64,000 nucleotides of DNA from a virus, in the IMG/VR virus record IMGVR_UViG_3300045988_133735, one strand, 5' to 3'. Made by a program: the position numbers and the translations under genes. The notes below the pieces were generated by a model. It saw only the letters and a program-made list of their open reading frames with translations, had not been told where the DNA came from and made no database searches. Positions 25,157-50,144 of the stretch are shown here, piece by piece; positions within the stretch are counted from its first letter, which is position 1; each line of letters opens with the position of its first letter.

Positions 25157-25801
25157 GAATTTCCAGCAATTTCCTACATACATAATGCGAGTCCAGATGA
25201 TATTATAAACGAAGTTTTCGCAGAGGGAACTCCGGTAGTGTGAAAACGCACCGCCGGGGTTTAATGCGGCTACTGGTTCTGCAGAACTGGTACTGGTCCC
25301 AAGCCCAGAAATGCAATCGCAAGTGGGGCACATAGCGTCACGATCGAAGCGGTAGCACAAACAGAAGGGCGCTCCACTGATCCTAATGAAATTGACACTG
25401 ATTTGATGTGATGGCCACACAAATATAATCAGAAGACTAAAGTAGATTAGGCAGTTCCACATTAAGTGAGCGAAACTAAACGAAAGGAGGGTTTATAGCT
25501 TGAATTGTAAAATCAGTTACCGCTCGCTAGGAGTGGTCTTTGGTGCAAGGGTCGCGTCTTACTCCAATGAGAAAATTTTCATGGGATGGCGATACAAACT
25601 GTTTTGACGTTTAACTGAAATTTCCAAATTAAATAGAATTGACGTTGCAAGTGCTCGTTGCATCCGAGCATAAGTTCGCATCATACATACGAGTTTAGCG
25701 GTAGTCGCAAATAGGCGTAATCGACCTATAAGGTTCGCTATAATGCGGGGCTGGGTGATTCCCGAACGGACAAGTTAAACGTATGTTAAGGATAAGAAAC
25801 C

Positions 25802-32966: not shown

Positions 32967-33044
32967 CCGGGTGTAGCGAAGCTGGTATCGCGCCAAATTT
33001 GGGATTTGGAGATTTCGCCCGTTCAAGTCGGGTCACTCGGACCA
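32967..33044 (+). tRNA. tRNA-Pro (TGG)
   Basis: CCGGGTG TA GCGA-AGCTGGTA-TCGC G CCAAA-TTTGGGA-TTTGG (7-nt variable) GCCCG-TTCAAGT-CGGGT CACTCGG A CCA. G37 is present. Confidence 0.7.
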
Positions 33045-33157
33045 TGGTGCAGGGTCTTTCCTTTCTACCTGTGCCTATTGTGTGTATAAAACGGTTTCCA
33101 TTAGACGAAACCGCGTGGCTGAAAATGCCGAGCAGGTACGATAATCCTGCCTTATAT

Positions 33158-33544
33158 GGGCCCGAAAGGTTTTCGACAGGGCTATGAAAATTCACAATTC
33201 GCAGGTCGGCCATCACCTTACGAGGCAAAAAACAATAAACGCTAACTACAATAGTTATCGCTGCGCGGCTTGATGCCGTGCCCAAAACAGCATCCTGATA
33301 GGCAGGTAAATGTTTGATGGTTCAAAGAATAAATCCCGGAACCCGATGTAAACGGTAATAAACACCGGCGTTCTCGGACGCTAAAACCGAGTGGTGGAGT
33401 GATGTAACAAACCGTTACGTCCCTGGGTTTGCTGTGTTGGCGGCATGAATTCCTTTCAAAAATTCTAAATGCTAACTATTGCGTAAGAAGATTGTGTACG
33501 AGTAATAGTTCTGGACGTGGGTTCGAATCCCACCGGGTCCACCA
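33158..33544 (+). ncRNA. ssrA: tmRNA
   Basis: The 5' end is GGGCCCGAAAGGTTTTCGACAGGG. The 3' end is GGACGTGGGTTCGAATCCCACCGGGTCCACCA. The acceptor has a G3-U70 pair. The internal tag frame is ..AAA ACA ATA AAC GCT AAC TAC AAT AGT TAT CGC TGC GCG GCT TGA (33229-33273). Confidence 0.85.
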
Positions 33545-33907
33545 GTGGCGCAAGCCGCAAAGCTAGGTTCGATGCGACAGCGTAGTGTAGTGCGAGGTCG
33601 CTGGGGTGGCGCAATTCCACCGTGGATGCAATGCATTCATAACGCTTTGACCGAAATTGTGCGAACAGACTGCGACGGGGTAGCTCCTCGTGGAGTGAGG
33701 GTCTGGTGACAACATGAGTAGGCGATAGGATGACCTGCGAAAGTGGTCTAGTCAGTTTGGTGCCCGGACTGGCGGAGAGTGGATTTAAAAGGGCAGCCTT
33801 TGAGGATGGACTCTGGGGAAGACAAAATGTACCTAGTTGTATCTGCTGACGCGGTTAAGTCGCATTGCACATCGCCGATGCTGTTACATGGTTAAATCCT
33901 CCTCTCT

Positions 33908-33983
33908 GTGGCGTTAGTTCAGTTGGCAGAACACTTGGCTCATAACCGAGTAGTCGTGGGTTCAAAGCCCTCACGCCGCACCA
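33908..33983 (+). tRNA. tRNA-Met or tRNA-Ile2 (CAT), elongator type
   Basis: GTGGCGT TA GTTC-AGTTGGCA-GAAC A CTTGG-CTCATAA-CCGAG TAGTC GTGGG-TTCAAAG-CCCTC ACGCCGC A CCA. Confidence 0.8.
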
Positions 33984-34026
33984 TTTCGTGTACGAATATC
34001 AACAAATCAAAAAGAGGTAAATCAAA

Positions 34027-34290
34027 ATGGCTGAGAATGCAGCTAAAAATACCGAAAGATATCAATCCTATAAACTTCAATGGATGTTGGATCATGGACA
34101 CACATTAGAGGAAATTTTTAGAGAACTCTACATGATTCAAAAGGAATACTTGGAAGACGGAGAGTCATGCCCAAGCATTTGGACGTTGTTGGATCGATGG
34201 GAAAAGGATATTGGGTTTGGTGGAGAATGTTGGGCTTGCTTTGATGAATGGCTGGAGAATGAAGGTAGAGAGGTAAATCAAAATGGCTGA
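34027..34290 (+). CDS. hypothetical protein
   Basis: 87 aa. Its RBS and start are identical over 22 nt to those of the next gene. Confidence 0.5.
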   Translation: MAENAAKNTERYQSYKLQWMLDHGHTLEEIFRELYMIQKEYLEDGESCPSIWTLLDRWEKDIGFGGECWACFDEWLENEGREVNQNG

Positions 34291-34954
34291 CAAGTATCTC
34301 AGTATCATTACAAACTTCGGCTGCCACTATAGCTGCCCTGAGTGTATTGTCCGCAATAACAAGCTCAAGATGACACCGACAGACGAGTATTCTTCTTATA
34401 TGCAGTTAGAGCATGTTCTGAAGAACGAATGTAATGACTGTAATTGGGTATCTGTGTCTGGCGGCGGTGATCCACTTTATCACTGGTGGGAACATCAGGC
34501 GTGGTGGACAGGATTCTTTTCGGTGTGTAAAGAACTTGGTCGCAAGATTGAGTTGCATACGAGCTATTATGATTTTGATCATGATGATGGAATTTTAATG
34601 TTTCCATTCGAACAGTTTGATAGAGTTGTGTATCATTTGCATTGTGCAGAGGAGCTTTATAAGATTTGTCGCCGGGGTAAAGAAATCGTTCGAGTGGTAT
34701 TCGTTGTGGACGATTCTATGGACGAATACGAAGTTAGCAGGATTTCAGCTATTGTTCAAGAAAGCGACGATATCGACGAGCTTACATTCCGGCAACGCGT
34801 GGATGCAAACTATAAGCCGACCTATCATTTGCGCGGTCTCCTGCTGGCGGGGCATAAAAAGGCTTGGTGGTATGTGACACAGTGCGATTACAATACTTAC
34901 TTCCACAACGGTAAACTGTACACGAAGTACACGGATATCTTTGAGAAGGAGTAA
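34283..34954 (+). CDS. radical SAM enzyme (minimal, 223 aa)
   Basis: CxxxCxxC cluster motif FGCHYSCPEC near the N-terminus, and a SAM-binding GGE-like motif VSGGGDPL. Confidence 0.65.
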   Translation: MADKYLSIITNFGCHYSCPECIVRNNKLKMTPTDEYSSYMQLEHVLKNECNDCNWVSVSGGGDPLYHWWEHQAWWTGFFSVCKELGRKIELHTSYYDFDHDDGILMFPFEQFDRVVYHLHCAEELYKICRRGKEIVRVVFVVDDSMDEYEVSRISAIVQESDDIDELTFRQRVDANYKPTYHLRGLLLAGHKKAWWYVTQCDYNTYFHNGKLYTKYTDIFEKE

Positions 34955-34959
34955 TTCAG

Positions 34960-35268
34960 ATGTACATTGTCGTAAGCGATTATACCAACGAAAAAGTTGA
35001 CATCTACAAATCAGTAAGTTTCGATAAAGCATTTCAGGCGAGAAGCGATGCGATTGATTTTGCTGCCCGTAGCTATCAGAGCTTCTTTGACAATATGCCC
35101 AGCGATGAAGCTGCACGGTATGAAAACGCAACGCGAATTAACACTGACTCTTATGCGGATTTCTGTGGGTGTGCTTTGTGTCCGTATCCCGAGTATGCTA
35201 TCGGAGCTGCGGTTGATAATGGTGAAGATAATCACATGTACTACATGGTATTTAAGGTGGAGGAGTGA
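34960..35268 (+). CDS. hypothetical protein
   Basis: 102 aa with an AAGGAG RBS. Confidence 0.5.
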   Translation: MYIVVSDYTNEKVDIYKSVSFDKAFQARSDAIDFAARSYQSFFDNMPSDEAARYENATRINTDSYADFCGCALCPYPEYAIGAAVDNGEDNHMYYMVFKVEE

Positions 35269-35360
35269 TTTCATGAAGCGATACCTTGTAAGCGTTTGGA
35301 TACGACAGTCTTATTCCATTTGTGGCAAAAAGCTGAGACCGGATTCTGAGGTAGTAAGTT

Positions 35361-35585
35361 ATGAAAAAACATAAAGATTTATTGCTGGCAGCCTGCGCAT
35401 CGGCTGTTTCGTTTTTGAGTCTCGATGATGTTTTTGAGAAACTTCTACGGCACATCTCGCTTGTTCAAATGGCAACAGGAAACATAAGTTCTCTTTACGG
35501 ACGTGTCAGCGAGTTGGCTCTTTCGGTATCTGTGGCTCTGTCGCTTGCGATTGGAGCTGTGGTATATATTTTATTCAAAAATTAA
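35361..35585 (+). CDS. small membrane protein
   Basis: 74 aa with N- and C-terminal hydrophobic segments. Lies upstream of the SPFH gene (an NfeD-like role is speculation). Confidence 0.45.
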   Translation: MKKHKDLLLAACASAVSFLSLDDVFEKLLRHISLVQMATGNISSLYGRVSELALSVSVALSLAIGAVVYILFKN

Positions 35586-35597
35586 AAGGAGGAACGA

Positions 35598-36509
35598 ATG
35601 AAGAAGTTCAAAAAGATTTTCGTGGTTTCGTGTGCAATCGTGATGGCGTTGACCTTTACGGGGTGTACCAAGAAAGAGGTGTATACAATCGAACCTCATG
35701 AAACTGCATTTCTGATTTCACTCTCTGAGGGCGGTGGGAAACAGGCGTCCTTTGAGAGTGAGGCAATGCTCGCTGAAGCAAAGGTGGCAGCCAAACAGGT
35801 GTACATTACTTACTCGAAGCGACATCTGTCGCCGACTGACATCATTGGTACTTGGGTACCGGATAACATGTTGGTTGTCGTCAATAGAACTCCTGTTACT
35901 CGTGAATGGTCCGAGGGCAAGGACAGTGGCACCAGCACTGTCAACCAGTCCATCTCTGCCGAAAGCAAGGAGTCTATTGGCTTCTCTGTCGGTATGAACT
36001 GCTCTGCTCAGATCTACACTGAAAACGATGCAGTCAAGTTCCTGTATTCCTACAACAACAAACAGCTCTCCGAGATTATGGATACTGAAATCCGTGCTCG
36101 TGTTGAAGCTGACTTTGTTGAAATGTGCGCCAAGTACACCATGAATGAGATCCTTGAGAAGAAGGCCGAGATCATGGAGTATGTCCGCAAGGATGTGACT
36201 GAGTATTTTGCAGAACGCGGTATCACGATTACTGTCCTTGGTATGAAGGATGGCATTGAGTACGACGATGCGTCTGTTCAGGCTGCTATTAACAAGTCCT
36301 TTGTGGCTGAGCGCAATGATGAGGCGCAGGAGATTGAGAATCAGACTAAGATTTCCAAGGCGAACGCAGAAGCCGAGGCGAATAAAATCATCTCTGAGTC
36401 TCTGACTGACCGGCTGATTCAGCAGCAGATGTATGAAAAGTGGGATGGTAAGCTTCCTACTTATGTCGGCGGCGATGCCAGCATTCCTGTACTGAACGAT
36501 ATGAAGTAA
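35598..36509 (+). CDS. SPFH/band-7 (prohibitin-like) lipoprotein
   Basis: 303 aa with a lipobox (ALTFTGC). SPFH-like core followed by an Ala/Glu-rich coil (AEANKIISE). Confidence 0.55.
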   Translation: MKKFKKIFVVSCAIVMALTFTGCTKKEVYTIEPHETAFLISLSEGGGKQASFESEAMLAEAKVAAKQVYITYSKRHLSPTDIIGTWVPDNMLVVVNRTPVTREWSEGKDSGTSTVNQSISAESKESIGFSVGMNCSAQIYTENDAVKFLYSYNNKQLSEIMDTEIRARVEADFVEMCAKYTMNEILEKKAEIMEYVRKDVTEYFAERGITITVLGMKDGIEYDDASVQAAINKSFVAERNDEAQEIENQTKISKANAEAEANKIISESLTDRLIQQQMYEKWDGKLPTYVGGDASIPVLNDMK

Positions 36510-36598
36510 CCTCGTAGGAACGGAGACATTAAACCCGTGTCCTGAGATCAACACAAGATCTAAAAACTGTGTGGCAGCTCGGAAAGACGAGCAAGTAT

Positions 36599-36681
36599 GT
36601 TTCGGTGCTGGAATCGGCAGACAGGGGAGTCTCAAAAACTTCTGCGAAAGCATGTGGGTTCAAGTCCCATCCGAAACACCA
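36599..36681 (+). tRNA. tRNA-Leu (CAA), class II
   Basis: GTTTCGG TG CTG-GAATCGGCAGA-CAG, GGAGT-CTCAAAA-ACTTC, variable arm TGC-GAAA-GCA, GTGGG-TTCAAGT-CCCAT, CCGAAAC A CCA. Confidence 0.8.
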
Positions 36682-36804
36682 TGGGTGAGTTGCGTCGCCC
36701 AAAAATCTCCTTTTCCTCACAAATGCTTAGTGGCTCATGAGTTCCAGACATGAATCACCGTGACTGAACAAGTCGTAGCAGGTACGCAATCCTGTTTTTG
36801 ATAA

Positions 36805-36890
36805 GTCGGTATGGTGGAATAGGCGAGACACGTCTGCTTTAGGGACAGATGCTTAAGTGCATGTGAGTTCAAATCTCACTACCGACACCA
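36805..36890 (+). tRNA. tRNA-Leu (TAG), class II
   Basis: GTCGGTA TG GTG-GAATAGGCGAGA-CAC, TCTGC-TTTAGGG-ACAGA (one C-A mismatch), variable arm ATGC-TTAAGT-GCAT, GTGAG-TTCAAAT-CTCAC, TACCGAC A CCA. Confidence 0.7.
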
Positions 36891-36948
36891 ATCTCGCATG
36901 GGTAGGATCTTTAGCGGTCAGATCCGGCCGCGCCTGTGCGAGATACCA
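36891..36948 (+). ncRNA. tRNA-minihelix-like element ending in ACCA
   Basis: ATCTCGCA ... TGCGAGAT forms an 8-bp closing stem around the GGATC-TTTAGCGGTCA-GATCC hairpin, followed by ACCA. It abuts the CCA end of tRNA-Leu(TAG). Confidence 0.3.
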
Positions 36949-37040
36949 CCCCCCTGTGGGGAATGTTAAATTTTTCCATGTACGTTATTCTCGGCTCGCT
37001 CGAAAGAGTGCAGCGTGCCTTTGTAAGCCGAGTATTTTAT

Positions 37041-37109
37041 GTGGCTGTAGCTCAGATGGTAGAGCAGCAAGCTAACTGCGCGCCGTTGGTTCAAGTCCAA
37101 CCAGTCACT
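37041..37109 (+). tRNA. aberrant tRNA-like gene (3-bp anticodon stem; loop AGCTAAC, possibly CUA)
   Basis: Canonical acceptor (GTGGCTG/CAGTCAC), D arm (GCTC-AGATGGTA-GAGC) and T arm (GTTGG-TTCAAGT-CCAAC). Only 19 nt separate the D and T arms, where 22-23 are expected. Confidence 0.45.
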
Positions 37110-37228
37110 CCGATGCCCGCTTATAGGGTCTCATTCCTCCTATTCGGGCTTTACCTCTTTTCTTCCTTGTTATTCCCGGCTCCATGGCGAATGCTGTGGC
37201 AATAAGGCGTAGTAAGCTGGGTTTATAT

Positions 37229-37303
37229 GCAGCGGTCGTACATCGGCTAGTATATCAGCCTTCCAAGCTGAGGAGGTGGGTTCGACTCCCATTCGCTGCT
37301 CCA
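37229..37303 (+). tRNA. tRNA-Gly (TCC)
   Basis: GCAGCGG TC GTAC-ATCGGCTA-GTAT A TCAGC-CTTCCAA-GCTGA GGAG GTGGG-TTCGACT-CCCAT TCGCTGC T CCA. Confidence 0.8.
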
Positions 37304-37611
37304 TCGTGTGCGACGGTTTGAGACTCCTACATGCAAATCCAGCCGGGTAAGTCCGTCCACAACCGGTGTAGGTAGACATCTTTACTCATTAGGTCTCTAA
37401 CTAAATGAGGAATAGAAAATCAGTTGTTCCAGCTAGATCGGGGATTGGCCGTTCATTGGCAAACGACAGGCATCACACCGGTAAATGATGCTGAGCCAAA
37501 TAGGAAGGGGAATAAGGTGCAAGTCGAGTAGCTGTCGGACGAATACTCTTCAGGTAGCCAGTAAACTGGAACGTAAAACGAATGTTGGCTGTTTCTGATT
37601 TTCTTTTATAT

Positions 37612-37698
37612 GCTACCATGATGTAACTGGCAGGCATGAGGGACTTAAAATCCCTTGCTGGAAACAGCGTGCGGGTTCAAGTCCCGCTGGTAGCACCA
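37612..37698 (+). tRNA. tRNA-Leu (TAA), class II
   Basis: GCTACCA TG ATG-TAACTGGCAGG-CAT G AGGGA-CTTAAAA-TCCCT, variable arm GCTG-GAAA-CAGC, GCGGG-TTCAAGT-CCCGC TGGTAGC A CCA. Confidence 0.8.
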
Positions 37699-38661: not shown

Positions 38662-38919
38662 GTGAAGGTTTATGTTCTTTATGACTGTGTCGAAAATCCA
38701 GACGAGTGGGCGTTTGCTGGTGTTGAACACATTTATGCGAATCATGCAGACGCGGTAGATCGGATGCAGGATTTGTTCTTAGAGTGTTTGAACGAACACG
38801 ACATAAATAATGCAGAAAGTATGCGAGATAGCTATATTGACGATTGGGGAGCGCGTGTCGCGGACGTTCCGGCTGGTTATCGTCACACATGGACAATTAC
38901 AGAGGAGACAGTTGTATGA
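38662..38919 (+). CDS. hypothetical protein
   Basis: 85 aa with a GTG start after GAGGTG. Confidence 0.5.
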   Translation: MKVYVLYDCVENPDEWAFAGVEHIYANHADAVDRMQDLFLECLNEHDINNAESMRDSYIDDWGARVADVPAGYRHTWTITEETVV

Positions 38920-39140
38920 AATACGATTTACATGTTGGGCAATTAGTTAGAATCGGCAATGAAGTGTCTGAAAACGATGTGAATCGCAACAAAAGAGGGC
39001 GCATCGTAAGATTTGATAAAGATTACCCAGTTGTAGAGATGTTAGACCCATTTACAAGTGGAGAAACAACGATTACTTGGTGCCCGCAGAGACTTTGGGA
39101 GCCGTGTCCAACAAAACTTACTTGCAAATCACTTCTGTGA
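38916..39140 (+). CDS. small beta-rich paralogue with C-terminal tail (CKSLL)
   Basis: The start is taken at MKYDLHVGQLVRIG (ATGA overlap). Ends PTKLTCKSLL-stop. Confidence 0.6.
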   Translation: MKYDLHVGQLVRIGNEVSENDVNRNKRGRIVRFDKDYPVVEMLDPFTSGETTITWCPQRLWEPCPTKLTCKSLL

Positions 39141-39377: not shown

Positions 39378-39800
39378 ATGAAAGCAATCGTTAAGTTCAA
39401 CAATCTGTTCGTCACTTCCGCATACGATGTCGCTACCCTGAAGAAGGTCGAGAAGTTCCGTCCCGAGGCTTTGAAGCTGTATGAGGGCGAGGGCAAGGAG
39501 AAGAAGCTTGTGAGCGCCATTGCTGTTGCTTCTAAGGATGATATTAGCAAGTTCGGCGTGGCTTTTGCTCAGGATGCAGTCACTGGCGATAAGGTTGCCG
39601 TTTTGAGCCGTCCTGTTCCTGCTGGTATGAAGTCTGAGGCAGAGATCAAGGAGTGGGTTCGCGACATGATTGGTCTGACCATTGTTCGCGGCACCAAGAT
39701 CGAGGAGCAGATCGCAGCCGCTATGGAGTCCATCAATGCTGATGAGGCTGCCATGAATGCTGCAATCACTATCGATGGTGAGGACGCAGACGCCGAGTAA
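39378..39800 (+). CDS. hypothetical abundant-type protein (PRTRC protein E-like by position)
   Basis: The start is taken at MKAIVKF, after AAAGGAGA. Strong codon bias and an acidic C-terminus. Confidence 0.5.
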   Translation: MKAIVKFNNLFVTSAYDVATLKKVEKFRPEALKLYEGEGKEKKLVSAIAVASKDDISKFGVAFAQDAVTGDKVAVLSRPVPAGMKSEAEIKEWVRDMIGLTIVRGTKIEEQIAAAMESINADEAAMNAAITIDGEDADAE

Positions 39801-39897
39801 GAGCGCTGCTGAGGTTCCACGCCGGATGTTCCTGCGCAATACGTCCGGCATTTTAACGAGTAAACGATATTTTTCAAATTAAAAAGGAGTACATACT

Positions 39898-40137
39898 ATG
39901 ATTAAGATTTGGGTTACCACTAATGACGACAAGATCGAGGACGTTGTTGCTACCAGCATGACCCCGAAGGACGTGTTCGCAAAGCATGGCGTGAACTACG
40001 CCAATGGCCAGAGCACTCTGGATGGCTGCATTCTGACGGTGGCACAGCTGAACACTCCGCTGTCTGAGCTGGGCGTCGGCGATGAGGTGTATCTGGCCTC
40101 CATCTCCAAGCACGACAATGCGACTGGTATGAACTGA
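39898..40137 (+). CDS. small ubiquitin-like (beta-grasp) candidate
   Basis: 79 aa. Its size and its position upstream of the JAB and E1 genes support the call, along with the pattern LDGCILTVAQLNTPLSELGVGDEVYL. There is no terminal GG (ends NATGMN). Confidence 0.3.
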   Translation: MIKIWVTTNDDKIEDVVATSMTPKDVFAKHGVNYANGQSTLDGCILTVAQLNTPLSELGVGDEVYLASISKHDNATGMN

Positions 40138-40280
40138 TCGCGCTGATCCGAAAATAAACAACTGAATTCGTTATTGGTTACAACGATATTCTAAACACTG
40201 CAGCCGCTGGCAGGCCGGTTAAAGTCTGCCTTATATGTGTCCAGTATCTGGGCTTTTAAATTAAACAGGAGGAAATACAT

Positions 40281-41798
40281 ATGGCTTTCACAGCTTATTC
40301 CAGCAAGATCGGTTCGAGAGATTGCGACGAAGCATATCCGTTGATTCTGAATTGCGACAATAGCAATCTCAACGATAATGTGATGTTGTCTGTACTGCGC
40401 GTACTGATCAATGATGACCGTATCAAGCATTCTATTTCGGGAGGGCATCGCATTCAGTCAATTATTGATTGCCAACAGTTCTATATGGGCGACGACGAAA
40501 AGTTCACTAAGGACATGTTCGTTCATGAAGATAACGCTTTCAATCAGATGAAATTTGGCATCATGTTTCAGACGATCGACGATAAGAAAGCAGACGCCAT
40601 TATTTCTGAGTTCAAGAAGTACAATGCGGATTACGAAGCTGCCGGTTGGAAGATCATGGATGTCGCAGCTAAGTACATCGATAAGAATGGCAACGTCTAT
40701 GTATATCAGAATGAAAAGAAGCAGGGTGTTGTCGTTGTTTGTGCTAAGAAGAATCTGATTCAGGCCATGCACATGGCGGCGAGTTGTTTGCCAAACCTGA
40801 TGCCGTGGTTTTTCGCTGATCAGCCGCTGACTGATGATGAGAAGGCGATGCTGCGTACTCTTTATGATCAGGACAACGAAGCTTTCGGCAAATACATGGA
40901 GAAGGCATACGAGACCGGCGATTTCTATGGTAAGAAGTTGCGTGGCGCTCTGAAGGGATTTTGCAAGAAGGATTATGCAAACGAAATTACCCGGCAGGAG
41001 CGATATATTCGTGAAATCCAAGATGAAATCGAAAGAAAATATAACGATATCCGTGAGAGAAATAAAAATCTTGAAGAAGCTCAATTTAAACTCACTATGA
41101 TCATGGACCGTGCTTGCTGCACTGAGGATGACGAAGCTGCAATTGTTAATTTCCTGAAGCGCTGCAAGACGCTGGTTTATCTTGACTCCAATAGTGATCG
41201 AATCTCTATTGGTTATGTTGGCACGCTAAACGATTGTGATGAGGGCGAGTTCCGCACTTGTGTTGAGAAAAAGGCAAATAGTCGAAGCTACATTTTTCAG
41301 CGTTCGCCGTATGACACGGAACTTACGAAAGATTTCTTTGTGTCAATTTGGAAGACCCATCGGTTCGCTATTCGCACCTACTGTGAATGGCGACTGTATT
41401 CCAGCTGCAAGGTTGAAGCAATTCGTGGTTCTGATATGCAAGGTCGCTCTGATTTGATGAAGGATCGTATTCGTCAGCCCCATATCGATCGGCATGCGTG
41501 CTATAGCGGTTATCGAGAGATGCTCAATGCGCTTAGTGTAAAACACGATTACATTGGCGTCCTGACTACGATTATTGGTTCAAGCGCATCTATCAACTGG
41601 AAGGATGGCACCGTTGTAAGCGACCTCATGTACGATTTGTTTGACGAATCCTATATCAAAACTCGTAAGTGTATCGAGGATAACGCGGGTAATCTGTACA
41701 CGGTGGCAGAAGTATTTGATATTCTCAAGAACGAAAAGGACGCAGCAGCAACAGCAGAAGCAGTAAAGAAGGAGGTCGCTAAAGATGAAGCCCATTAA
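40281..41798 (+). CDS. large cassette protein, possible E2-like C-terminal region
   Basis: 505 aa between the Ubl candidate and JAB. The C-terminal QPHIDRHACYSGY resembles an HPN..C E2 active-site context (weak). Confidence 0.3.
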   Translation: MAFTAYSSKIGSRDCDEAYPLILNCDNSNLNDNVMLSVLRVLINDDRIKHSISGGHRIQSIIDCQQFYMGDDEKFTKDMFVHEDNAFNQMKFGIMFQTIDDKKADAIISEFKKYNADYEAAGWKIMDVAAKYIDKNGNVYVYQNEKKQGVVVVCAKKNLIQAMHMAASCLPNLMPWFFADQPLTDDEKAMLRTLYDQDNEAFGKYMEKAYETGDFYGKKLRGALKGFCKKDYANEITRQERYIREIQDEIERKYNDIRERNKNLEEAQFKLTMIMDRACCTEDDEAAIVNFLKRCKTLVYLDSNSDRISIGYVGTLNDCDEGEFRTCVEKKANSRSYIFQRSPYDTELTKDFFVSIWKTHRFAIRTYCEWRLYSSCKVEAIRGSDMQGRSDLMKDRIRQPHIDRHACYSGYREMLNALSVKHDYIGVLTTIIGSSASINWKDGTVVSDLMYDLFDESYIKTRKCIEDNAGNLYTVAEVFDILKNEKDAAATAEAVKKEVAKDEAH

Positions 41799-42681
41799 TA
41801 TCACGGAGCAGGTTGTAGCAGATATGGCACGTGAATTTGTTCAGGAGCTGTATAAGACCGGTAGGGTTAAGACGGATTCTTTCTCATACAAGAAGAATTT
41901 TGCGTCTGTTAAAAAGGATGCTGTCGAGGTGAATTTCACCTATGAAGCGTATTCTCAGATGTTTGCGTTGATTGATCACTTCGATTGTGAGGTTGCATGG
42001 CGCGGCATTGTGAATCGTATCGATAAGACGCATTTTCAGATTACCAAGATTCTGCTGTATCCTCAGACTGTGACTGGTACCACAGTGGACACCGATCAGG
42101 AAGAATTTTCAAAGTGGTTTCAGGCGCTGCCTGTTGAAACGATTCGCAACCTGAGATTTCAGGGACACAGCCATGTCGATTTCGGTGTAACGCCGAGCAG
42201 TCGCGATATGGAGGATCAGTGGCGATTCATTGACGGACTCAAGCCGACGAGTTATCAGATTTTTATGATTTGGAACAAGAAGCGTCAGTATAACGTTCGC
42301 GTCATTGATCTGGCCGACAATGTCATCTATGAGGGAGCCGATGTCAAGGTTACTGTTGGAGATTTTGACTCGACTCGATTTCTCGAGGATGCAGACAAAA
42401 CGGTTCGAAAGCGCCCTGTATATGTCGCAAGCACAGTCGCAAATTACGGAGCTTATGGAGCAGGCACCTATTATGGTAAAGCAGTTACGCCGCAAAAAAC
42501 GTACCCGCAAACAGTTACCACGCAAACGCCAGTGCCGCAAATCAAGACGGTAACTGGCGCAGCGGCTCCGAAAGTCAAGGAAGTGTCTGAGACTCGATAT
42601 CCATTGGTCAATCATTACAAGGAGAATCCAGAAGATCTTGATACGTGCTGGAATTCCAGCTGTTTTCCGTATGACAATTAA
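41785..42681 (+). CDS. JAB/JAMM (MPN+) metalloprotease
   Basis: 298 aa with the exact JAMM pattern H-S-H-x7-S-x2-D (GHSHVDFGVTPSSRD) and an upstream Glu (CEVAWRG). Confidence 0.7.
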   Translation: MKPINITEQVVADMAREFVQELYKTGRVKTDSFSYKKNFASVKKDAVEVNFTYEAYSQMFALIDHFDCEVAWRGIVNRIDKTHFQITKILLYPQTVTGTTVDTDQEEFSKWFQALPVETIRNLRFQGHSHVDFGVTPSSRDMEDQWRFIDGLKPTSYQIFMIWNKKRQYNVRVIDLADNVIYEGADVKVTVGDFDSTRFLEDADKTVRKRPVYVASTVANYGAYGAGTYYGKAVTPQKTYPQTVTTQTPVPQIKTVTGAAAPKVKEVSETRYPLVNHYKENPEDLDTCWNSSCFPYDN

Positions 42682-42696
42682 AGAAAGGACTACAAA

Positions 42697-43371
42697 ATGA
42701 ATCTGAGTAAGCTTGAAATGGTATTCAACCCCGATGATATCAGCGGCCAGATCCACATTGTTGGTTGTGGTTCGGTTGGCTCCACTGTGGCGGAACTTCT
42801 CGCACGGTATGGTCTGAAGAATTTCACGCTGTGGGATATGGACGAGGTCGAAAGTAAGAATATCGTTAACCAGATGTTCTTCGCCAACAATATTGAAGCT
42901 CCAAAAGTCGAGGCGGTTCGCGATATTATCTGCGCCATCAATCCTGATGCCAAAGATGAAATCGTTCTGAAGCCGAATGGTTGGCAGGGCGAGATGATTC
43001 GCGGTTATGTATTCCTCGCGGTCGACAATATCGAAATTCGCAAGCAGTTCATGGAAGCGAACAAGTACAACCCGAACATCAAGGGTGTGTTTGATATCCG
43101 CACTGGGTTCCATGATGCACAATGCTGGGCAGCAGATTGGAGTAAGGACAAAGACCGAGAGAATTTATGGAATTCTATGAATTTCTCTCATGAAGATGCA
43201 CAGGCTGGCACTCCGGTTTCCGCATGTGGTATCGTTCAGGGTCTCGCCCCGACTGTTCGTTTCGTGTGTTGTTTGGCGGTTACGAACTTTATCAATTTCG
43301 CGACTAATATCGCACCTTTGAAGAAAATGATCGTTGCAAATCCGTACACTTTTAACGTTACGGCTGCATAA
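42697..43371 (+). CDS. ThiF/MoeB/E1-like adenylyltransferase (short form)
   Basis: 224 aa with a Rossmann motif IVGCGSVGS and DMDEVESKNIVNQ (DxDxVxxSNxxRQ-like). Confidence 0.7.
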   Translation: MNLSKLEMVFNPDDISGQIHIVGCGSVGSTVAELLARYGLKNFTLWDMDEVESKNIVNQMFFANNIEAPKVEAVRDIICAINPDAKDEIVLKPNGWQGEMIRGYVFLAVDNIEIRKQFMEANKYNPNIKGVFDIRTGFHDAQCWAADWSKDKDRENLWNSMNFSHEDAQAGTPVSACGIVQGLAPTVRFVCCLAVTNFINFATNIAPLKKMIVANPYTFNVTAA

Positions 43372-43385: not shown

Positions 43386-43650
43386 AAATCGTGATGAATT
43401 ACTGTTGAAACATACAGTCCTGCCGGATGACCGACAGGTTCGTAAAGGTAAGATCATATACATCCCACCGGGAAACCGAGGCGTGTGATCGCATGCGACG
43501 TACGTCGACTCCGCAGGTATGCTGATTCGCTGATCGAAATAATCAACGTAGGTACGTACCGGCAATGAGCTCAAAACGCAAACTCGCAGGAAGGACGTCC
43601 CGTCGAAGGCACCTCCCTGAGCATACAAACCACCATTTAGATCACGATTT
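43386..43650 (+). ncRNA. candidate retron msr-msd type ncRNA (element X2)
   Basis: The 265-nt gene-free segment directly 5' of the RT is closed by a perfect 10-nt inverted repeat, AAATCGTGAT (43386-43395) / ATCACGATTT (43641-43650). It contains the hairpin CTGCCGGATGACCGACAG (43419-43436). Confidence 0.5.
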
Positions 43651-43665: not shown

Positions 43666-44901
43666 ATGTACGTTACTTATTGGAATCCGCCGAGAACAAG
43701 GCAGATTACGTTTGATGAAATCCTTAGTGGAGTCGTTGACGTGAACCAGTTGAAATATGCTGGCGATGAAACTTCTACTCGAACTGTACAGCGTAATGGG
43801 TTGAATGATCGTCTCGTAGCAATTACAAACGTTACCAATATGATTGCACGGCTCGCGGAATTCAATCAGAAATACGCTCGTCTTGAAGCAGTACGTGACC
43901 TGTCGACGTATTACTATCACTTTGAAATCCCTAAGAAGACCGGCGGCTTTCGTCCAATTGATGCACCGACTAATGAATTGAGCGATGCGTTGGTTGAGTT
44001 GCGGACGCTGTTAAAAAGTTTCATGATTGCTGATTATCACACGGCAGCACACGCATATATCAACGGGCGCGGCACTCTAAGTGCAATTAAAAAGCATCAG
44101 GCAGGGCACAGATATACAGTAAAAGATCGTGAGACTGGGAAAGAAAAGATCGTCACCTATGAAAATAACTGGGCTGTCAAGTTTGACTTTCATGGATTCT
44201 TCCCGAGCTCCACTCCTGAGTTTATCTACGGTATGTTCAGAAAGATTTATCCGTTTTCTCTCATTATGAAGGATCGAAATGGATACAACCAGCTGACTAA
44301 AGCGATGCGTCTGTGCTTCTTGAACGGCGGTCTTCCGCAGGGAACACCAATCAGTCCGTGGATCACGAACGTTATGATGATCCCGTTTGATTATATGTTA
44401 AACAAGAAGCTTTCTTACAAATATACCATGAAAGACGGCATTTCTCGCACTTTTACATACACCAGATATGCAGACGATATCACCATCAGCTGCTATTTGA
44501 GTTTTGACCCGATGGAAATGCAGGATATTATCAAAGAGACGTTGGATGCAATCAATGCTCCGTTTACTTTGAATGAAGAAAAAACGCATTATGGTAATCG
44601 GCATTCGAGCGAAAACTGGATGCTCGGTCTGATGTGGAACGCCAATAACGATATCACAGTCGGATGGCGCAATTTTAAGGACTTCAAGAAGATGGCATCT
44701 AATTACATCGTCTGCAAGAAAGAAGGAAAAACGTGGGATCTTGAAGACCTGCAGCAGTTTAATGGCAGGTTGAATTACTACCGTATGGTAGAAAAAGAAG
44801 CGGTCGACACAGTGATCTCTCGGTACAACGAAAAATATCGTGTTGATATGATGGCAATGCTCAAAGCTGACTTAAAACCAAAAGAAGGAGTTGTTTTCTA
44901 A
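43666..44901 (+). CDS. reverse transcriptase, retron/retron-like type
   Basis: 411 aa with the RT motifs IPKKTGGFRPIDAP, KFDFHGFFPSS, GGLPQGTPISPWITN and YTRYADDITISC, plus the thumb-like WMLGLMWN. Confidence 0.8.
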   Translation: MYVTYWNPPRTRQITFDEILSGVVDVNQLKYAGDETSTRTVQRNGLNDRLVAITNVTNMIARLAEFNQKYARLEAVRDLSTYYYHFEIPKKTGGFRPIDAPTNELSDALVELRTLLKSFMIADYHTAAHAYINGRGTLSAIKKHQAGHRYTVKDRETGKEKIVTYENNWAVKFDFHGFFPSSTPEFIYGMFRKIYPFSLIMKDRNGYNQLTKAMRLCFLNGGLPQGTPISPWITNVMMIPFDYMLNKKLSYKYTMKDGISRTFTYTRYADDITISCYLSFDPMEMQDIIKETLDAINAPFTLNEEKTHYGNRHSSENWMLGLMWNANNDITVGWRNFKDFKKMASNYIVCKKEGKTWDLEDLQQFNGRLNYYRMVEKEAVDTVISRYNEKYRVDMMAMLKADLKPKEGVVF

Positions 44902-45250: not shown

Positions 45251-45580
45251 AATCTCTTTTGAATATCGGGCGTTTTACGTCGCGAGCTGCCGGATGACCG
45301 ACAGTTATGAAGAATACCATAGCACGCTCATACGGGCTCCATGGGCTGCCTGAGTTGGCAGCCTCGCCCTCCTGAGCTATGGATCAAATTAGTTCGCAAG
45401 GGCGGAGTCTCCGTTCTGCAGCCTAATCCCAGCAGAGCTGGAGATCGCGGCTGCAATCGCTGCGACTCATTGGCCATCAGAACATTTACTCGACAATGCT
45501 TCCGGGATCAAAGATCCCTCCAAATTATCTCGCAAATGTTCTTCTAGCCAAACTGTTACTCACAATTTAGAAAAGAGATT
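45251..45580 (+). ncRNA. retron-like structured element X3 (paralogue)
   Basis: Closed by the 10-nt inverted repeat AATCTCTTTT (45251-45260) / AAAAGAGATT (45571-45580). Contains GAATATC, the hairpin CTGCCGGATGACCGACAG (45287-45304), and AATTTAGA before the right repeat. Confidence 0.4.
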
Positions 45581-45584
45581 GATT

Positions 45585-45845
45585 ATGGATTACAAATATA
45601 AAATTGGACAAAAAGTACGAATTCGGAAAGACTTGACAGCCGGCGCAGAATATCCAATGCAAAGCGGAAGTCGTTGCGGTTGGGGCCCGGGAGTAGCTGA
45701 GGATATGGAAAAATACCGAGGGCAGATTATGACAATTGATTATATTAAAGGCTATTATACCCTCTGCGAAGATAATAGATCGTGGTCGTGGAGCGACACA
45801 ATGTTCGAAACACAAAAGCGGCTTACATGTAAAAGTCTTTTGTAA
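45585..45845 (+). CDS. small beta-rich paralogue with C-terminal tail (CKSLL)
   Basis: MDYKYKIGQKVRIRKDL...WSWSDTMFE...QKRLTCKSLL-stop. Confidence 0.6.
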   Translation: MDYKYKIGQKVRIRKDLTAGAEYPMQSGSRCGWGPGVAEDMEKYRGQIMTIDYIKGYYTLCEDNRSWSWSDTMFETQKRLTCKSLL

Positions 45846-45859: not shown

Positions 45860-46675
45860 ATGGCAGAAACCGCAAAGAAAGTGGCACAAAAAACCATTCT
45901 TTTCCCAGTTGAAGATCGGCCTGCAAAACTCGTCGTTACAGAGGACGATATTGAACGAATTATTCAGCAGGCCGTTAAAAGTGCCACTGCAACGAAAAAA
46001 GCACGGAAACCTCGTCGGACGGATAGTCTTTATCTCAAGGATGGGCGCAGAAAGCCAACCCCGGCAGATCCCATCAAGTCAAAGGAAGATTTCAAGAAGA
46101 TTGTTGATTACCTTGGGTCTAACGGACCTGAAGAAATCGCGCTTAGAAATAAAACGATGTTCATTCTCGGTTGTTCAATTGGTGTTCGATGCGGCGATTT
46201 GTTGAAGCTTAAAACGGCTGATGTTTATTATGAGAACGCTCATGTAAAAGATCATGTTGAACTGATCGAGCAGAAGACCGGCAAGCGAAACGTGTGTAAG
46301 ATTTCTCATATGGCAAAAGAAGCTTTAAGAGAATATTATCAGGCAATTGGTTTTCGAATTGACCGTGACACGCTTCTTTTTCAGAGCAAGAAAGGTGGAC
46401 AGCTTAACGTTAGATCGGTGAGCAACCTTTTGAAGAAAGCTGGTAAGGCGTGTGGTTTAAATATTGAGTTATCTACTCATAGTATGCGTAAAACTTATGC
46501 CATGGCAGCATTACAAAGCGCTGAGGGTACAGTTGATGGAGCGAACATCTTGAATATTCTCCAAACAAAATTTAATCACAGCGACCAGCGTATTACGATG
46601 AGATATATCAAAATGGATCAAGAAAAACTTGATGAAGTCTCTGAAAATGTTTCTGACTGGTTTGAAGGAGAATGA
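45860..46675 (+). CDS. tyrosine recombinase / phage integrase family
   Basis: 271 aa with Arg in GVRCGDL, HxxR in THSMRKT, and the catalytic Tyr context ITMRYIK. Confidence 0.7.
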   Translation: MAETAKKVAQKTILFPVEDRPAKLVVTEDDIERIIQQAVKSATATKKARKPRRTDSLYLKDGRRKPTPADPIKSKEDFKKIVDYLGSNGPEEIALRNKTMFILGCSIGVRCGDLLKLKTADVYYENAHVKDHVELIEQKTGKRNVCKISHMAKEALREYYQAIGFRIDRDTLLFQSKKGGQLNVRSVSNLLKKAGKACGLNIELSTHSMRKTYAMAALQSAEGTVDGANILNILQTKFNHSDQRITMRYIKMDQEKLDEVSENVSDWFEGE

Positions 46676-46678: not shown

Positions 46679-46951
46679 ATGAACTATAAGTTTAAACCCG
46701 GAGATAAAGTAACAGTTAGAAAAGATTTATCAGATCGTAAAATATACAAGATGTTGTCAGGAGAAACTCCATATGATGACATTATTGCTATTCATTCTAT
46801 GGAAAATCTTCGAGGGAAACAAGTAACAATCGAGAGTTATGATTGTTGTGGGAATGTAATGTGTTACAGGGTAAAAGAAAGCTCCAGATATTGGACAGAT
46901 GAAATGTTCGAAGAATCTAAAAAACCGTTTACATGTAAAAGTTTATTATGA
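46679..46951 (+). CDS. small beta-rich paralogue with C-terminal tail (CKSLL)
   Basis: MNYKFKPGDKVTVRKDL...YWTDEMFE...KKPFTCKSLL-stop. Confidence 0.6.
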   Translation: MNYKFKPGDKVTVRKDLSDRKIYKMLSGETPYDDIIAIHSMENLRGKQVTIESYDCCGNVMCYRVKESSRYWTDEMFEESKKPFTCKSLL

Positions 46952-46967: not shown

Positions 46968-47252
46968 GTGTCGAAAAGCAAGTACAAATATAAGAATGAA
47001 GAAGCAGTTCGCGTCAGGGAAGATCTTCAATCTGGAACAGTTTATTACATGAGATCCGGTCCAGAACCGGATACCAATGGTGTGGAGACATCATGGAGTG
47101 GACGTGGGCAAGTAGGTTATCGTGGACAAATTGTACATATTTCTCACAAGGCAAACGGTCGATACAAAATTCTTGAAGACGGAAAAACATATTATTACAC
47201 AGATGAAATGTTTGATCGTCCAAAGAACTTAATTTGCAAAAGTTTGTTGTGA
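46968..47252 (+). CDS. small beta-rich paralogue with C-terminal tail (CKSLL)
   Basis: GTG start. ..AVRVREDL...YYTDEMFD..PKNLICKSLL-stop. Confidence 0.6.
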   Translation: MSKSKYKYKNEEAVRVREDLQSGTVYYMRSGPEPDTNGVETSWSGRGQVGYRGQIVHISHKANGRYKILEDGKTYYYTDEMFDRPKNLICKSLL

Positions 47253-47261: not shown

Positions 47262-47519
47262 ATGGAATACAAGTATAAACCCGGCGACAAAGTTAGAGTC
47301 CGCCCAGATCTTCATGAGTCCGGAAGTTACAAAATGGTAAGTGGAACAAGACGAGGATTTAGCCCCGGAGTTAATAGTGCTATGTGTAGTTACGCTGGTA
47401 AGATTGCAACGGTTTCACATTGCTACATTACATATGTTTTAGAAGGATTCGGTAATTGGTCGTGGAGTGATGAAATGCTTGAGCCGGCTAAACCGCTTTG
47501 TTGCAAATCATTGTTGTGA
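47262..47519 (+). CDS. small beta-rich paralogue with C-terminal tail (CKSLL)
   Basis: MEYKYKPGDKVRVRPDL...WSWSDEMLE..AKPLCCKSLL-stop. Confidence 0.6.
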   Translation: MEYKYKPGDKVRVRPDLHESGSYKMVSGTRRGFSPGVNSAMCSYAGKIATVSHCYITYVLEGFGNWSWSDEMLEPAKPLCCKSLL

Positions 47520-47807: not shown

Positions 47808-49872
47808 TTTCAAGAAATTTCGTGCGCTGCTGCAGGACCACTTCAATGAGATGGTGAAGAGTGAGAATCCACTGTTTGTCACTGACGCTGATGAGGATGA
47901 ACTGTACAATCTGTATCTTGACAGCTTCCCGGCTGGCACGAATGAGCTGTTCCGTAAGCGTCGTGAGTATGACTGTTCCTGCTGCCGCCGTTTTGTAAAG
48001 AATATCGGCAAGCTGGTGGCGTTTGACAAGAATTATAATTTGATTTCCATCTGGGATTTCGATGCAAAGTCTGCCAAATATCAGCCTGTTGTTGATGCAC
48101 TGGCCGCCTATGTAAAGAGCCGCGCCATTGTGAATCCGTACTTTGTCAGTCGCAATATGATCGGTTCTGGGGACATGTTCGGCACCGAGATGAACTACGA
48201 GTACGATGAAAACCACAAGGATGTGCATACTTGGGATCATTTCGCAGTCAAGATTCCGCAGCGTTTTATTACCAGTGGAGATGACGTGGCTACCAAGATG
48301 GCACAGTGGCGTGACTCCGCAAACGTGTTCAAGCGTTCTCTGGAAGAGCTAACCATGGAGGCTGTTGATACTGTGCTGGAGCTGATTGCGCAGAATAGCC
48401 TGTATCGCGGCAAGGAGTTTGAGCGGTCTGTAAAGGAGTTTAAGCACGATAAGATTGATTATGACAAACTGTCTGTTAATGAAAAGGTTGCCTTTGTATG
48501 GCTTGCTCCTACATATGCTACGGCAGCGCAGCTTCGCATTCGTAACACCGCTATCGGCACCCTTCTTATCAATTTGAGCGAAGGTATGGATGTGGATTCT
48601 GCCGTTACTGCCTTTGAGAAGGTAGTTGCTCCTGCAAACTATAAGCGTCCAAAGGCGATTTTCACCAAGAAGATGCTGGAAGATGCACAGAAGACTGTCA
48701 CCGAGCTGGGTTATATGAGCAGTCTGGGCCGTCGGTTTGCTACTCTGGACGATATCACCGCCAATAATATCTTGTTCTGCAACCGTGATGCTGCTCCTCG
48801 TGTGCTTGGCGCTATGAATCCGTTTGAAGCAATGGCTAAGACTGTTGCGATTGACCCCAAGAAGTTCGGCCGCGCAGAGGAAATCAGCATTGATAAATTC
48901 ATTAAAAATGTGCTGCCGACTGCGACTGGGCTGGAACTGTTCATGGAGAATCGTTTCGAGAAGAATATGATGTCTCTGATTGCTCCGCAGGATAAAAATG
49001 CGCCGTCTATGTTCAAGTGGGCAAATGGCTTCAGTTGGGCGTATGCCGGCAATATGGCAGACAGCGATATTCGCGAAAATGTTAAGGCTGCTGGCGGCAA
49101 GGTCGATGGTGTGCTGCGTTTTTCTATTCAGTGGAACGATAAGCCGGGCGAGTGGGATGAAAACGATGAGGATGCTCATTGCATTGAACCCGATAAGAAT
49201 CATATCTATTTCAGCAACAAGTGGCACCCTCGTACTGATGGCCGCCTGGATGTTGATATCATTCATCCTAATCATGGTAAAGCTGCGGTCGAGAATATTA
49301 CATGGCCTGACATCGAAAGGATGAAGGAAGGTGAGTACAGCTTCTATGTGAACTGTTTTACTAGTCGTGGAGGTAAAACTGGTTTCCGTGCTGAGATCGA
49401 ATTCGATGGCAACATCTACTCGTTTAACTATGATAAGCCGCTGCATCAGGGTCAGAATGTCTCCGTGGCAAAAGTCACGCTGAAGGATGGCAAGTTCTCT
49501 ATCAAGGAGCTGCTGCCCAGTTCTACCAGTACCCGCGAGATCTGGGGTGTGAACTCCAATCAGTTTGTGCCTGTTTCTGTGGCAATGTATTCTCCGAACT
49601 ACTGGGATGAGCAGACTGGTAATGGCAACCGCCACTACTTCTTTATGCTCAAGGATTGCGTCAACCCTGAAAAACCCAATGGCTTCTACAATGAATTTCT
49701 GAAGGCGGAACTGTTACAGCATAAGCGAGTATTTGAGGCTCTCGGTTCTCAGATGGCAGTCCAGTCAGTAGATGACCAGTTGTCTGGCGTTGGATTCTCT
49801 GAGACGAAGCATGATTCCTTCATTGTTAAGGTGCAGGGAGCTACTGAGCGAGTTCTGAAAGTGGTGATTTAA
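47800..49872 (+). CDS. large hypothetical protein
   Basis: 690-aa uninterrupted ORF. No motif I can assign. It is followed by a tail paralogue, a coiled-coil protein and an AAA+ ATPase. Confidence 0.6.
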   Translation: MSDFKKFRALLQDHFNEMVKSENPLFVTDADEDELYNLYLDSFPAGTNELFRKRREYDCSCCRRFVKNIGKLVAFDKNYNLISIWDFDAKSAKYQPVVDALAAYVKSRAIVNPYFVSRNMIGSGDMFGTEMNYEYDENHKDVHTWDHFAVKIPQRFITSGDDVATKMAQWRDSANVFKRSLEELTMEAVDTVLELIAQNSLYRGKEFERSVKEFKHDKIDYDKLSVNEKVAFVWLAPTYATAAQLRIRNTAIGTLLINLSEGMDVDSAVTAFEKVVAPANYKRPKAIFTKKMLEDAQKTVTELGYMSSLGRRFATLDDITANNILFCNRDAAPRVLGAMNPFEAMAKTVAIDPKKFGRAEEISIDKFIKNVLPTATGLELFMENRFEKNMMSLIAPQDKNAPSMFKWANGFSWAYAGNMADSDIRENVKAAGGKVDGVLRFSIQWNDKPGEWDENDEDAHCIEPDKNHIYFSNKWHPRTDGRLDVDIIHPNHGKAAVENITWPDIERMKEGEYSFYVNCFTSRGGKTGFRAEIEFDGNIYSFNYDKPLHQGQNVSVAKVTLKDGKFSIKELLPSSTSTREIWGVNSNQFVPVSVAMYSPNYWDEQTGNGNRHYFFMLKDCVNPEKPNGFYNEFLKAELLQHKRVFEALGSQMAVQSVDDQLSGVGFSETKHDSFIVKVQGATERVLKVVI

Positions 49873-50144
49873 TGGCTCGTTACAAAGTTGGGGACAAAGT
49901 GCGCTTAATCGATAATTTTGTGCAATATAAAGAGTATTTTATGCGAGATCGGAATAACAATCCCGGATATACTATAACAGTCAAGTGGTCATTAGAAGAA
50001 AGAATGGAACTTGCTGGAAAAATTGTGACGATTTCTGAAGTCGGAGAATACTACCGAATCGAAGAAGACGACTATCGTAAACATTGGACTGATGATATGT
50101 TTGTTGGCACGGCAAAATGTTTTGTTTGTCGGTCATTACTGTAA
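49872..50144 (+). CDS. small beta-rich paralogue with C-terminal tail (CRSLL)
   Basis: MARYKVGDKVRLIDNF...HWTDDMFV..AKCFVCRSLL-stop. Confidence 0.6.
   Translation: MARYKVGDKVRLIDNFVQYKEYFMRDRNNNPGYTITVKWSLEERMELAGKIVTISEVGEYYRIEEDDYRKHWTDDMFVGTAKCFVCRSLL

Follow-up and report, generated by a model that had tools for sequence, protein, structure and literature searches.

A conserved phage gene block joining a predicted ubiquitin-like activation cassette to a retron-type RNA and reverse transcriptase

Why would a bacteriophage carry what appears to be a ubiquitin-like (Ubl) activation cassette of its own, and why next to a reverse transcriptase (RT)? These questions are raised by a 64,000-nucleotide (nt) stretch of viral DNA (IMG/VR record IMGVR_UViG_3300045988_133735; hereafter the window), in which five closely packed plus-strand open reading frames (ORFs), here named A to E, occupy positions 39378-43371. 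An ORF listing recovered all five at the positions and on the strand given in a preliminary description made from the sequence alone. That description had read three of them as a candidate Ubl, a peptidase of the JAMM/JAB type and an E1 related to ThiF, accompanied by two further proteins and lying within a phage; this was borne out, and a large terminase (TerL), PhoH, tRNAs and a transfer-messenger RNA (tmRNA) are found in the same window. Bacterial Ubl systems, namely Bil, the Cap2/Cap3 proteins of CBASS (cyclic-oligonucleotide-based antiphage signalling system) and Bub, were recently shown to be antiviral, and these are host-encoded and use an E2. We describe here a phage block of seven parts, in which the five genes are accompanied by a retron-type non-coding RNA (ncRNA) and a retron-like RT.

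To follow the block across genomes, one profile for each of A to E and for the RT was built from seven loci, and every retrieved locus was scanned with the set. C, D, E and the RT were found in 86/86 viral loci without a change of order or strand, and A or B was absent only at contig ends. The same block order was seen in 47 loci from metagenome-assembled genomes (MAGs), with JAB identities down to ~30%; where a MAG locus gave no RT match, its contig stops less than about 7 kb past the ThiF gene, with the sole exception of one locus (L105). When the plus-strand ORFs of 21 representative loci were clustered, only the six protein families of the block, from protein A (the constant first gene) to the RT (the sixth), appeared in all 21; the next family was found in 11 loci and the rest in 8 or fewer. 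A decayed copy of the module was also seen, in a 244-kb contig (L149). Judging from these comparisons, A-B-C-JAB-ThiF, the ncRNA and the retron-like RT form one conserved island in a variable neighbourhood. The preliminary description had placed the cassette adjacent to an RT, which is true but understates the relation, as the RT and the ncRNA are constant members of the block.

The 294-nt gap between protein E and the RT contains the ncRNA region (43386-43650, plus strand), which is closed by an inverted repeat, AAATCGTGAT (43386-43395) and ATCACGATTT (43641-43650). A conserved G (43396) directly follows the 5' arm, and after it come lineage-specific hairpins, located in the window at about 43402-43418 and 43417-43438. 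An inverted repeat of 8 bp or more, with its 3' arm no further than 70 nt from the RT start and its 5' arm another 120-420 nt upstream, was found in 93 of 112 unique loci, compared to 22% of shuffled controls, and the arms co-vary by lineage (CTGTAAT/ATTACAG, CTGCAAT/ATTGCAG, CCGTAAT/ATTACGG, TTGTAAC/GTTACAA). A first alignment of the regions upstream of the RT gave no consensus structure, and the signal emerged only once the alignment was anchored on the inverted repeat; RNAalifold recovered the closing stem and a second hairpin across 25 lineages. Counting pairs in these helices, 96.4% of cells were paired, as compared to 74% in shuffles and 31-40% in slid-partner controls; compensatory changes occurred in 14/17 pairs, and the covariation score was 0.70 versus 0.26. 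The closing stem, which was partly selected for complementarity, was 100% paired with 6/8 pairs compensatory, and the second helix, which was not so selected, was 93% paired with 8/9 pairs compensatory. Single-sequence folding gave no significant z-score (-0.85), and Rfam holds no family for this ncRNA.

The RT itself (43666-44901, plus strand, 411 amino acids (aa)) has a catalytic YADD at 44467-44478 that is conserved across lineages. Its best matches are retron RT models, all of them below their family cut-offs, including the NCBIfam retron St85 RT (148.5 bits, cut-off 235) and PADLOC RT_II-A (127 bits); it also scores 51 bits against Pfam RVT_1. The covarying closing stem, the conserved G and the YADD RT, as read from sequence, together constitute a retron architecture. 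The described retrons whose RT models come nearest are St85 and type II-A, which share with the phage element a YADD RT, co-conserved accessory genes and an upstream ncRNA of ~250-340 nt with covarying inverted repeats and a conserved G after the 5' arm. The phage element differs from them in that its RT falls under every family cut-off and in that it has five accessory genes rather than one or two. No retron type in the published classifications is known to us to have Ubl, E1 or JAB accessory genes, and a full-text literature search retrieved no paper tying a retron or RT to a ThiF/JAB or Ubl system.

It could be argued that the Ubl cassette and the retron are two independent units, adjacent merely through the shared ancestry of their carriers. 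The carriers are indeed all large gut phages that are related to one another, ThiF and RT lie anywhere from 0.2 to 7 kb apart with unrelated genes in between, and L105 shows no RT within 9 kb. However, flanking genes turn over (8 of 21 loci or fewer) while the six families stay in 21 of 21 at JAB identities as low as ~30%, and in one locus (L131) the ncRNA and the RT have relocated jointly and now both sit between JAB and ThiF. We consider such independence quite unlikely.

What, then, do the accessory genes encode? Protein E (42697-43371, plus strand, 224 aa), described beforehand as a short ThiF/E1, was confirmed as such by its score of 75 bits against Pfam ThiF (PF00899; cut-off 28.1). Matches below the respective cut-offs were found to NCBIfam ThiF (ThiS adenylyltransferase; 67 bits), to the E1 part of NCBIfam 6A-MBL cap2_3 (55 bits) and to the PADLOC Cap2 E1 domain (56 bits), and MoeB was also among the best NCBIfam matches; the named-family matches do not extend beyond the generic Rossmann portion at residues ~16-87. 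The protein contains GCGSVGS and DMDEVESKNIVNQ, with the GCGxxG at 42763-42780. Across 21 lineages the residues G23-C-G-x-x-G28, D47-x-D49, N55, K70, D110, R115 and Cys177 (43225-43227) are conserved. This is the nucleotide- and Mg-binding set of MoeB and ThiF, and Cys177 sits where those two enzymes have their cysteine. No domain beyond the adenylation core is found. By these sequence criteria protein E is a minimal ThiF/MoeB-type E1 adenylation domain with its nucleotide-binding residues intact.

Protein D (41785-42681, plus strand, 298 aa), which starts within a 14-nt overlap with the end of C, carries the exact JAMM motif noticed earlier, H128-S-H130-x7-S138-x2-D141 (42166-42207), together with E69 (41989-41991), and this motif proved to be a family-wide feature. 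An alignment of 30 homologues, with identities down to 32%, shows no change at E69, H128, S129, H130, S138 or D141, and the family profile aligns to Rpn11 over the Glu and HxH..S..D positions (E-value 0.006). This invariance and the Rpn11 match indicate that the motif is not a chance occurrence. As to existing models, D of the window alone matches no Pfam JAB model, the 335 relatives retrieved by a homologue search include none with a precomputed Pfam domain, Pfam Prok-JAB matches weakly in 13 of 30 family members, and the PADLOC JAB models match D at an E-value of 0.003. The protein ends in a low-complexity tail. Its sequence thus identifies D as a divergent JAMM peptidase with a complete active site.

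The substrate of such a pair of enzymes would be protein B (39898-40137, plus strand, 79 aa), whose C-terminus reads ..KHDNATGMN. A homologue search yielded only two proteins, which were used for an AlphaFold2 (AF2) model with a predicted local distance difference test (pLDDT) score of 62.5. The model has the beta-beta-alpha-beta-beta-beta topology of a beta-grasp fold followed by a disordered tail, and the best 50 Foldseek matches in the PDB were all SUMO, ubiquitin, ISG15 or other ubiquitin-like domains (probability 0.99-1.00, query TM-score mostly 0.5-0.6, E-values from 2e-3). The model topology and these matches bear out, at moderate confidence, the earlier guess of a beta-grasp protein, and we take B to be probably a small ubiquitin-like protein.

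The C-terminal end of the B family is highly constrained. K71, N74 and A75 are invariant, and over more than 80 loci the end follows the consensus K-x-[D/N/S/E]-N-A, which in the window is K71-H-D-N74-A75, ending at 40122. After Ala75 there are either zero to four variable residues (none, R, A, TGMN, VVM, LAA or TSK) or, in some lineages, the whole of protein A; in the window the extension is TGMN (40123-40134). Since an invariant end is followed by disposable residues or by an entire protein, B appears to be made as a precursor, and the predicted processing is a cut after Ala75 (40120-40122) with removal of TGMN. It had been suggested earlier that the JAB protein trims B to expose a glycine. 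This part of the suggestion did not hold, as Gly77 is not conserved and the conserved end is Asn-Ala, followed by the variable extension.

Protein A (39378-39800, plus strand, 140 aa) starts at the ATG at 39378 with an AAAGGAG Shine-Dalgarno sequence 8 nt upstream, and occurs in 21/21 representative loci. The junction of a B-A fusion, ..KADNA|ACIKIAG.., could be read in L093 (4942-5562) and L095 (6444-7079), and L096 is the same as these; in L128 and L141 a single ORF matches both the A and the B profiles, and in L122 and L125 the A-B pair is duplicated. These fusions and duplicated pairs suggest that A is functionally tied to the Ubl protein. Protein A has no match in Pfam, NCBIfam, PHROG or the PDB, and a comparison of A with B found no relation between them. 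Between B and C, two terminator-like hairpins (40209-40253, plus strand) could raise the expression of A and B over that of C-E; the promoter and terminator scan as a whole was not above chance.

A beta-grasp protein encoded beside a ThiF-like enzyme might also be a sulfur carrier of the ThiS, MoaD, CysO or QbsE type, which would be adenylated by ThiF, form a thiocarboxylate, be matured or recycled by the JAB protein, and pass its sulfur to a nucleotide, to a tRNA or to what the RT makes. The best NCBIfam matches of protein E, the ThiS adenylyltransferase ThiF and MoeB, fit such a role; a Ubl, an E1 and a JAMM peptidase without an E2 make up the established architecture of CysO/Mec+ and QbsE/QbsD; and the phage has eight tRNAs and a tmRNA. 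In the CysO/MoeZ/Mec+ and QbsE/QbsC/QbsD pathways, moreover, the JAMM peptidase removes a C-terminal extension of the Ubl before or after E1 activation. However, known carriers, including those of these two pathways, have or expose a Gly-Gly end, whereas the B family ends in Asn-Ala. The two pathways also sit with sulfur-transfer or biosynthetic enzymes, and none is found here, the conserved block having no rhodanese, cysteine desulfurase or sulfur-insertion enzyme. A sulfur-carrier role, which would also leave the B-A fusions and the RT linkage unexplained, is in our view unlikely.

Conjugation of a Ubl would classically involve an E2, and the preliminary description had pointed to a weak E2-like PHID..HAC segment in protein C (40281-41798, plus strand, 505 aa; RQPHIDRHAC). 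The segment is real and forms the core of the protein: it is the most conserved spot of C, and H401 (41481-41483) and C407 (41499-41501) within it, as well as D32 and E187, are invariant among 36 family members with identities down to 16%. The E2 assignment found no such backing. Profile searches matched the C family to nothing in Pfam (E2 families included), NCBIfam or the PDB. The AF2 model of C is confident (pLDDT 84.5) and has a central coiled coil; Foldseek found no PDB match at an E-value of 1e-3 or better, none of the 50 matches listed is an E2, and the sole match in BFVD was an uncharacterised Siphoviridae protein. With Pfam, PDB sequence profiles and Foldseek against both PDB and BFVD all giving no support, the reading of C as an E2 was rejected. 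An exhaustive profile search showed the C family to be large, with 1,795 representatives at 50% identity, nearly all of them 440-550 aa long. We regard C as a candidate thiol-dependent partner rather than a recognisable E2.

This result bears on a further possibility raised beforehand, namely that the block is a Bil-like or type II CBASS-like (Cap2/Cap3) system, in which E1- and E2-dependent conjugation of a Ubl, or of the C-terminus of an enzyme, is antagonised by a JAB protein. Protein E does match the E1 part of the PADLOC Cap2 'E1-E2' models (56 bits) and of 6A-MBL cap2_3 (55 bits), and D weakly matches the PADLOC JAB models; type II CBASS and Bil (BilABCD) also share with the phage block E1 adenylation chemistry plus a JAB antagonist in a conflict system, and a Ubl machinery that may regulate a co-encoded enzyme. 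Yet both Bil and Cap2/Cap3 need an E2, and CBASS also needs a CD-NTase. The 224-aa protein E has no E2 domain and matches these models only over the generic Rossmann residues 16-87, no gene matched the UQ_con or Prok-E2 Pfam families at an E-value of 1 or better, C has no E2 fold, and a PADLOC scan found no CD-NTase in the block. The phage block differs further in having a dedicated Ubl with an Ala terminus, where classical bacterial ubiquitination uses a Ubl that ends in Gly, and in being phage- rather than host-encoded. Since no E2 fold or profile was found, and the matches were to generic ThiF and JAB only, the assignment to Bil or Cap2/Cap3 was not sustained, and we consider it very unlikely.

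The preliminary description had also likened the cassette to the ParB-related, ThiF-related cassette (PRTRC; TIGR03734-03742) of plasmids and integrative and conjugative elements. In layout the likeness is striking. The operon of Halopseudomonas pSMJS2 (L022, 7229-10868) runs ParB, PRTRC E (147 aa), PRTRC C (69 aa), a 416-aa protein, PRTRC B (235 aa) and ThiF (252 aa), and is mirrored in order and sizes by the phage A (140), B (79), C (505), JAB (298) and ThiF (224); an Azotobacter plasmid carries the first part of the same PRTRC gene series, and PRTRC C, also a small protein, ends in Gly in the Azotobacter copy. Both cassettes therefore present, in the same order, a small protein, one of ~70-80 aa, one of ~420-500 aa, one of ~235-300 aa and a ThiF, and both are of unassigned function, the PRTRC papers found assigning none to that cassette.

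Membership in PRTRC nevertheless failed. The NCBIfam models PRTRC_A, B, C, E and F matched none of the window proteins, nor any of 7 A-, 8 B- and 36 C-family members (the D family other than window D was scanned against Pfam only), and protein E scored 19.1 bits against PRTRC_ThiF (TIGR03736), for which the cut-off is 144.75. Scored with the PRTRC models, the genuine operon of pSMJS2, used as a positive control, gave 41 (40.6, E), 58 (57.6, C), 120 and 253 (ThiF) bits. Against Azotobacter and Halopseudomonas proteins, hhalign returned probabilities of 12.8% and 0.4% for the small-protein comparisons (C and E) and of 1% for the JAB family versus PRTRC B, and BLASTP found no similarity between the phage and PRTRC ThiF proteins. 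PRTRC B, the fourth gene in pSMJS2, lacks the JAMM motif (HxH..S..D is absent), whereas the fourth phage gene has it. Genuine PRTRC operons have ParB directly upstream of E, whereas no ParB is among the six families conserved around the phage cassette; conversely, PRTRC has no RT, which the phage block adds along with the ncRNA. Membership was rejected on these scans and comparisons, all negative. On the sequence evidence, the likeness to PRTRC is one of layout only, and of the readings considered here the least probable is that the phage block is a PRTRC member or a direct phage offshoot of that cassette.

The phage setting supplies yet another reading. The window is part of a phage of ~145 kb with a large terminase, PhoH, an exonuclease and a nicotinamide phosphoribosyltransferase (NAMPT)-like gene, and its close relatives are IMG/VR contigs of 100-150 kb. 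Carriers of the cassette are almost exclusively phage contigs; GenBank phage records contain it only once, in an unannotated human-faecal contig, and distant copies occur in MAG bins, mainly of Clostridia (e.g. Oscillospiraceae, Ruminococcus and Lachnospiraceae). The module is thus widespread but confined to uncultivated phages. In such a setting the block might be a counter-defence decoy, whose JAB protein would strip host Ubl or CD-NTase conjugates (anti-Bil, anti-CBASS), whose ThiF and Ubl would be competitive inhibitors, and whose RT would be a separate, neighbouring anti-defence gene. In agreement with this, it occurs almost exclusively in phage contigs, and it lies in an accessory region among genes for NAD salvage (NAMPT) and other functions of host takeover. 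However, a decoy would not call for a complete set of Ubl precursor, E1, JAB and two partners, co-conserved with their catalytic residues intact throughout the lineages, and the embedding of the RT inside the cassette in L131 argues against a merely neighbouring gene. We hold a decoy to be quite improbable.

All these rivals rank below the reading that we prefer, to which we attach middling confidence: an E2-less Ubl activation and conjugation pathway that works with a retron in phage-host or phage-phage conflict. Its biochemistry and targets are what we infer, and we are much more confident of the parts list and the linkage than of the conjugation step. In this pathway D would cut B after Ala75, and E would adenylate the new C-terminal carboxylate, possibly followed by thioester formation on Cys177. 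The activated tag would then be transferred without a classical E2, as in the archaeal SAMP/UbaA and the Thermus TtuB/TtuC systems. Protein C, with its invariant His401 and Cys407, would most plausibly serve as carrier or ligase, and protein A as the partner or target of the tag; D could also reverse the modification. A conflict function is suggested by the coupling of the Ubl cassette to a retron. The two arms would probably form one conflict system, serving phage-borne exclusion of rivals or counter-defence, in which the Ubl machinery may control the response or carry it out, comparable to the tuning of the CD-NTase by Cap2/Cap3 in type II CBASS.

The SAMP/UbaA/HvJAMM1 and TtuB/TtuC systems resemble the phage set, in which the beta-grasp fold is a prediction, in combining a small modifier of that fold with one E1 of the MoeB/ThiF type and a JAMM peptidase, and in lacking genes for an E2 or E3. 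They differ in that their modifiers end in Gly-Gly, whereas the phage tag ends in Asn-Ala, and in that the phage E1 is without the SNLxRQ arginine. The phage system, moreover, adds the dedicated proteins A and C, is phage-borne and is tied to a retron RT and ncRNA.

Several observations weigh against an E2-less Ubl pathway coupled to a retron. The model of B was built on an alignment of only two near-identical sequences and is of modest confidence (pLDDT 62.5), and searches against Ubl families (the B profile against the PDB; hhalign against ubiquitin and MoaD) were not significant. The tag terminates in Ala and not in Gly-Gly, and the canonical arginine of SNLxRQ is replaced by Asn58 in all 21 lineages of protein E, which could alter or weaken adenylation. 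Neither profile nor fold points to an E2 or E3, so the transfer step is hypothetical, and for A and C no relative with an assigned function could be detected. As for the retron, no RT lies within 9 kb in L105, and as all carriers are related uncultivated phages the RT linkage could partly reflect shared ancestry.

A more far-reaching version, which we put forward only tentatively, is that the block represents a retron-like element of a new class, with a complete Ubl activation system that needs no E2 as its accessory module. The Ubl would in that case be placed on A, C, the RT or the nucleic-acid product of the RT, and would arm or restrain the element.

Other features of the window were noted alongside the block. 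The preliminary description had offered, as one possible set of Ubl targets, 14 small proteins that share the C-terminal tail C-[KRH]-S-L-L (CxSLL) on at least two or three body types; six are encoded on the plus strand (38841-39140, 45579-45845, 46679-46951, 46968-47252, 47262-47519 and 49872-50144) and eight on the minus strand, between 11791 and 14444. As general targets these are unlikely, since the CxSLL tail is confined to the clade of the window whereas the cassette is universal. In other module-bearing clades, small proteins that occur in several copies end differently, in acidic-x-acidic-L/F-L/M-x-x-L-E/G, an example being '..FEDELMALLGG' plus 0-4 residues in L088. The C-terminus of D (42560-42681) contains a motif, NSS[CS]xPY, that is found only in loci that also have CxSLL-tailed proteins: both occur in 23 loci, neither in 57, and 3 are discordant. 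These counts hint at a link between the JAB protein and the CxSLL tails, an association in sequence that is confounded by phylogeny.

Amid the small tailed genes lies a tyrosine-recombinase-like ORF (45860-46675, plus strand). The NAMPT-like gene (53173-54651, plus strand; 542 bits to phrog_448) may serve NAD salvage against NAD-depleting defences. A plus-strand cluster at 32967-37698 holds eight tRNAs (Pro, Met, three Leu, Gly, and one more at 37041-37109), and the phage tmRNA (33158-33544) encodes the tag ANYNSYRCAA. A Type-P5 twister ribozyme is located at 25219-25308 (plus strand), scoring 47.1 bits against a gathering score of 37.6.

The component kinds of the block are known; the novelty lies in how they are combined, in a tag that ends in Asn-Ala, in the lack of an E2 and in the location in phages. 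Here the virus itself encodes the set of tag, E1 and peptidase, and keeps it tightly linked to an RT and ncRNA of retron type, joining two families of conflict systems that had no known connection. The block provides a defined system in which to ask how an E1 could conjugate without an E2, and gives a genomic context to two large families of unassigned function, of which the C family alone comprises ~1,800 clusters at 50% identity. As a sequence-unrelated look-alike of PRTRC, it may also help to interpret that cassette. If the block does represent a new retron class, a Ubl effector or regulator would be a first for retrons, and phages would have their first native Ubl system that is complete, one that is widespread in uncultivated phages of gut Clostridia.

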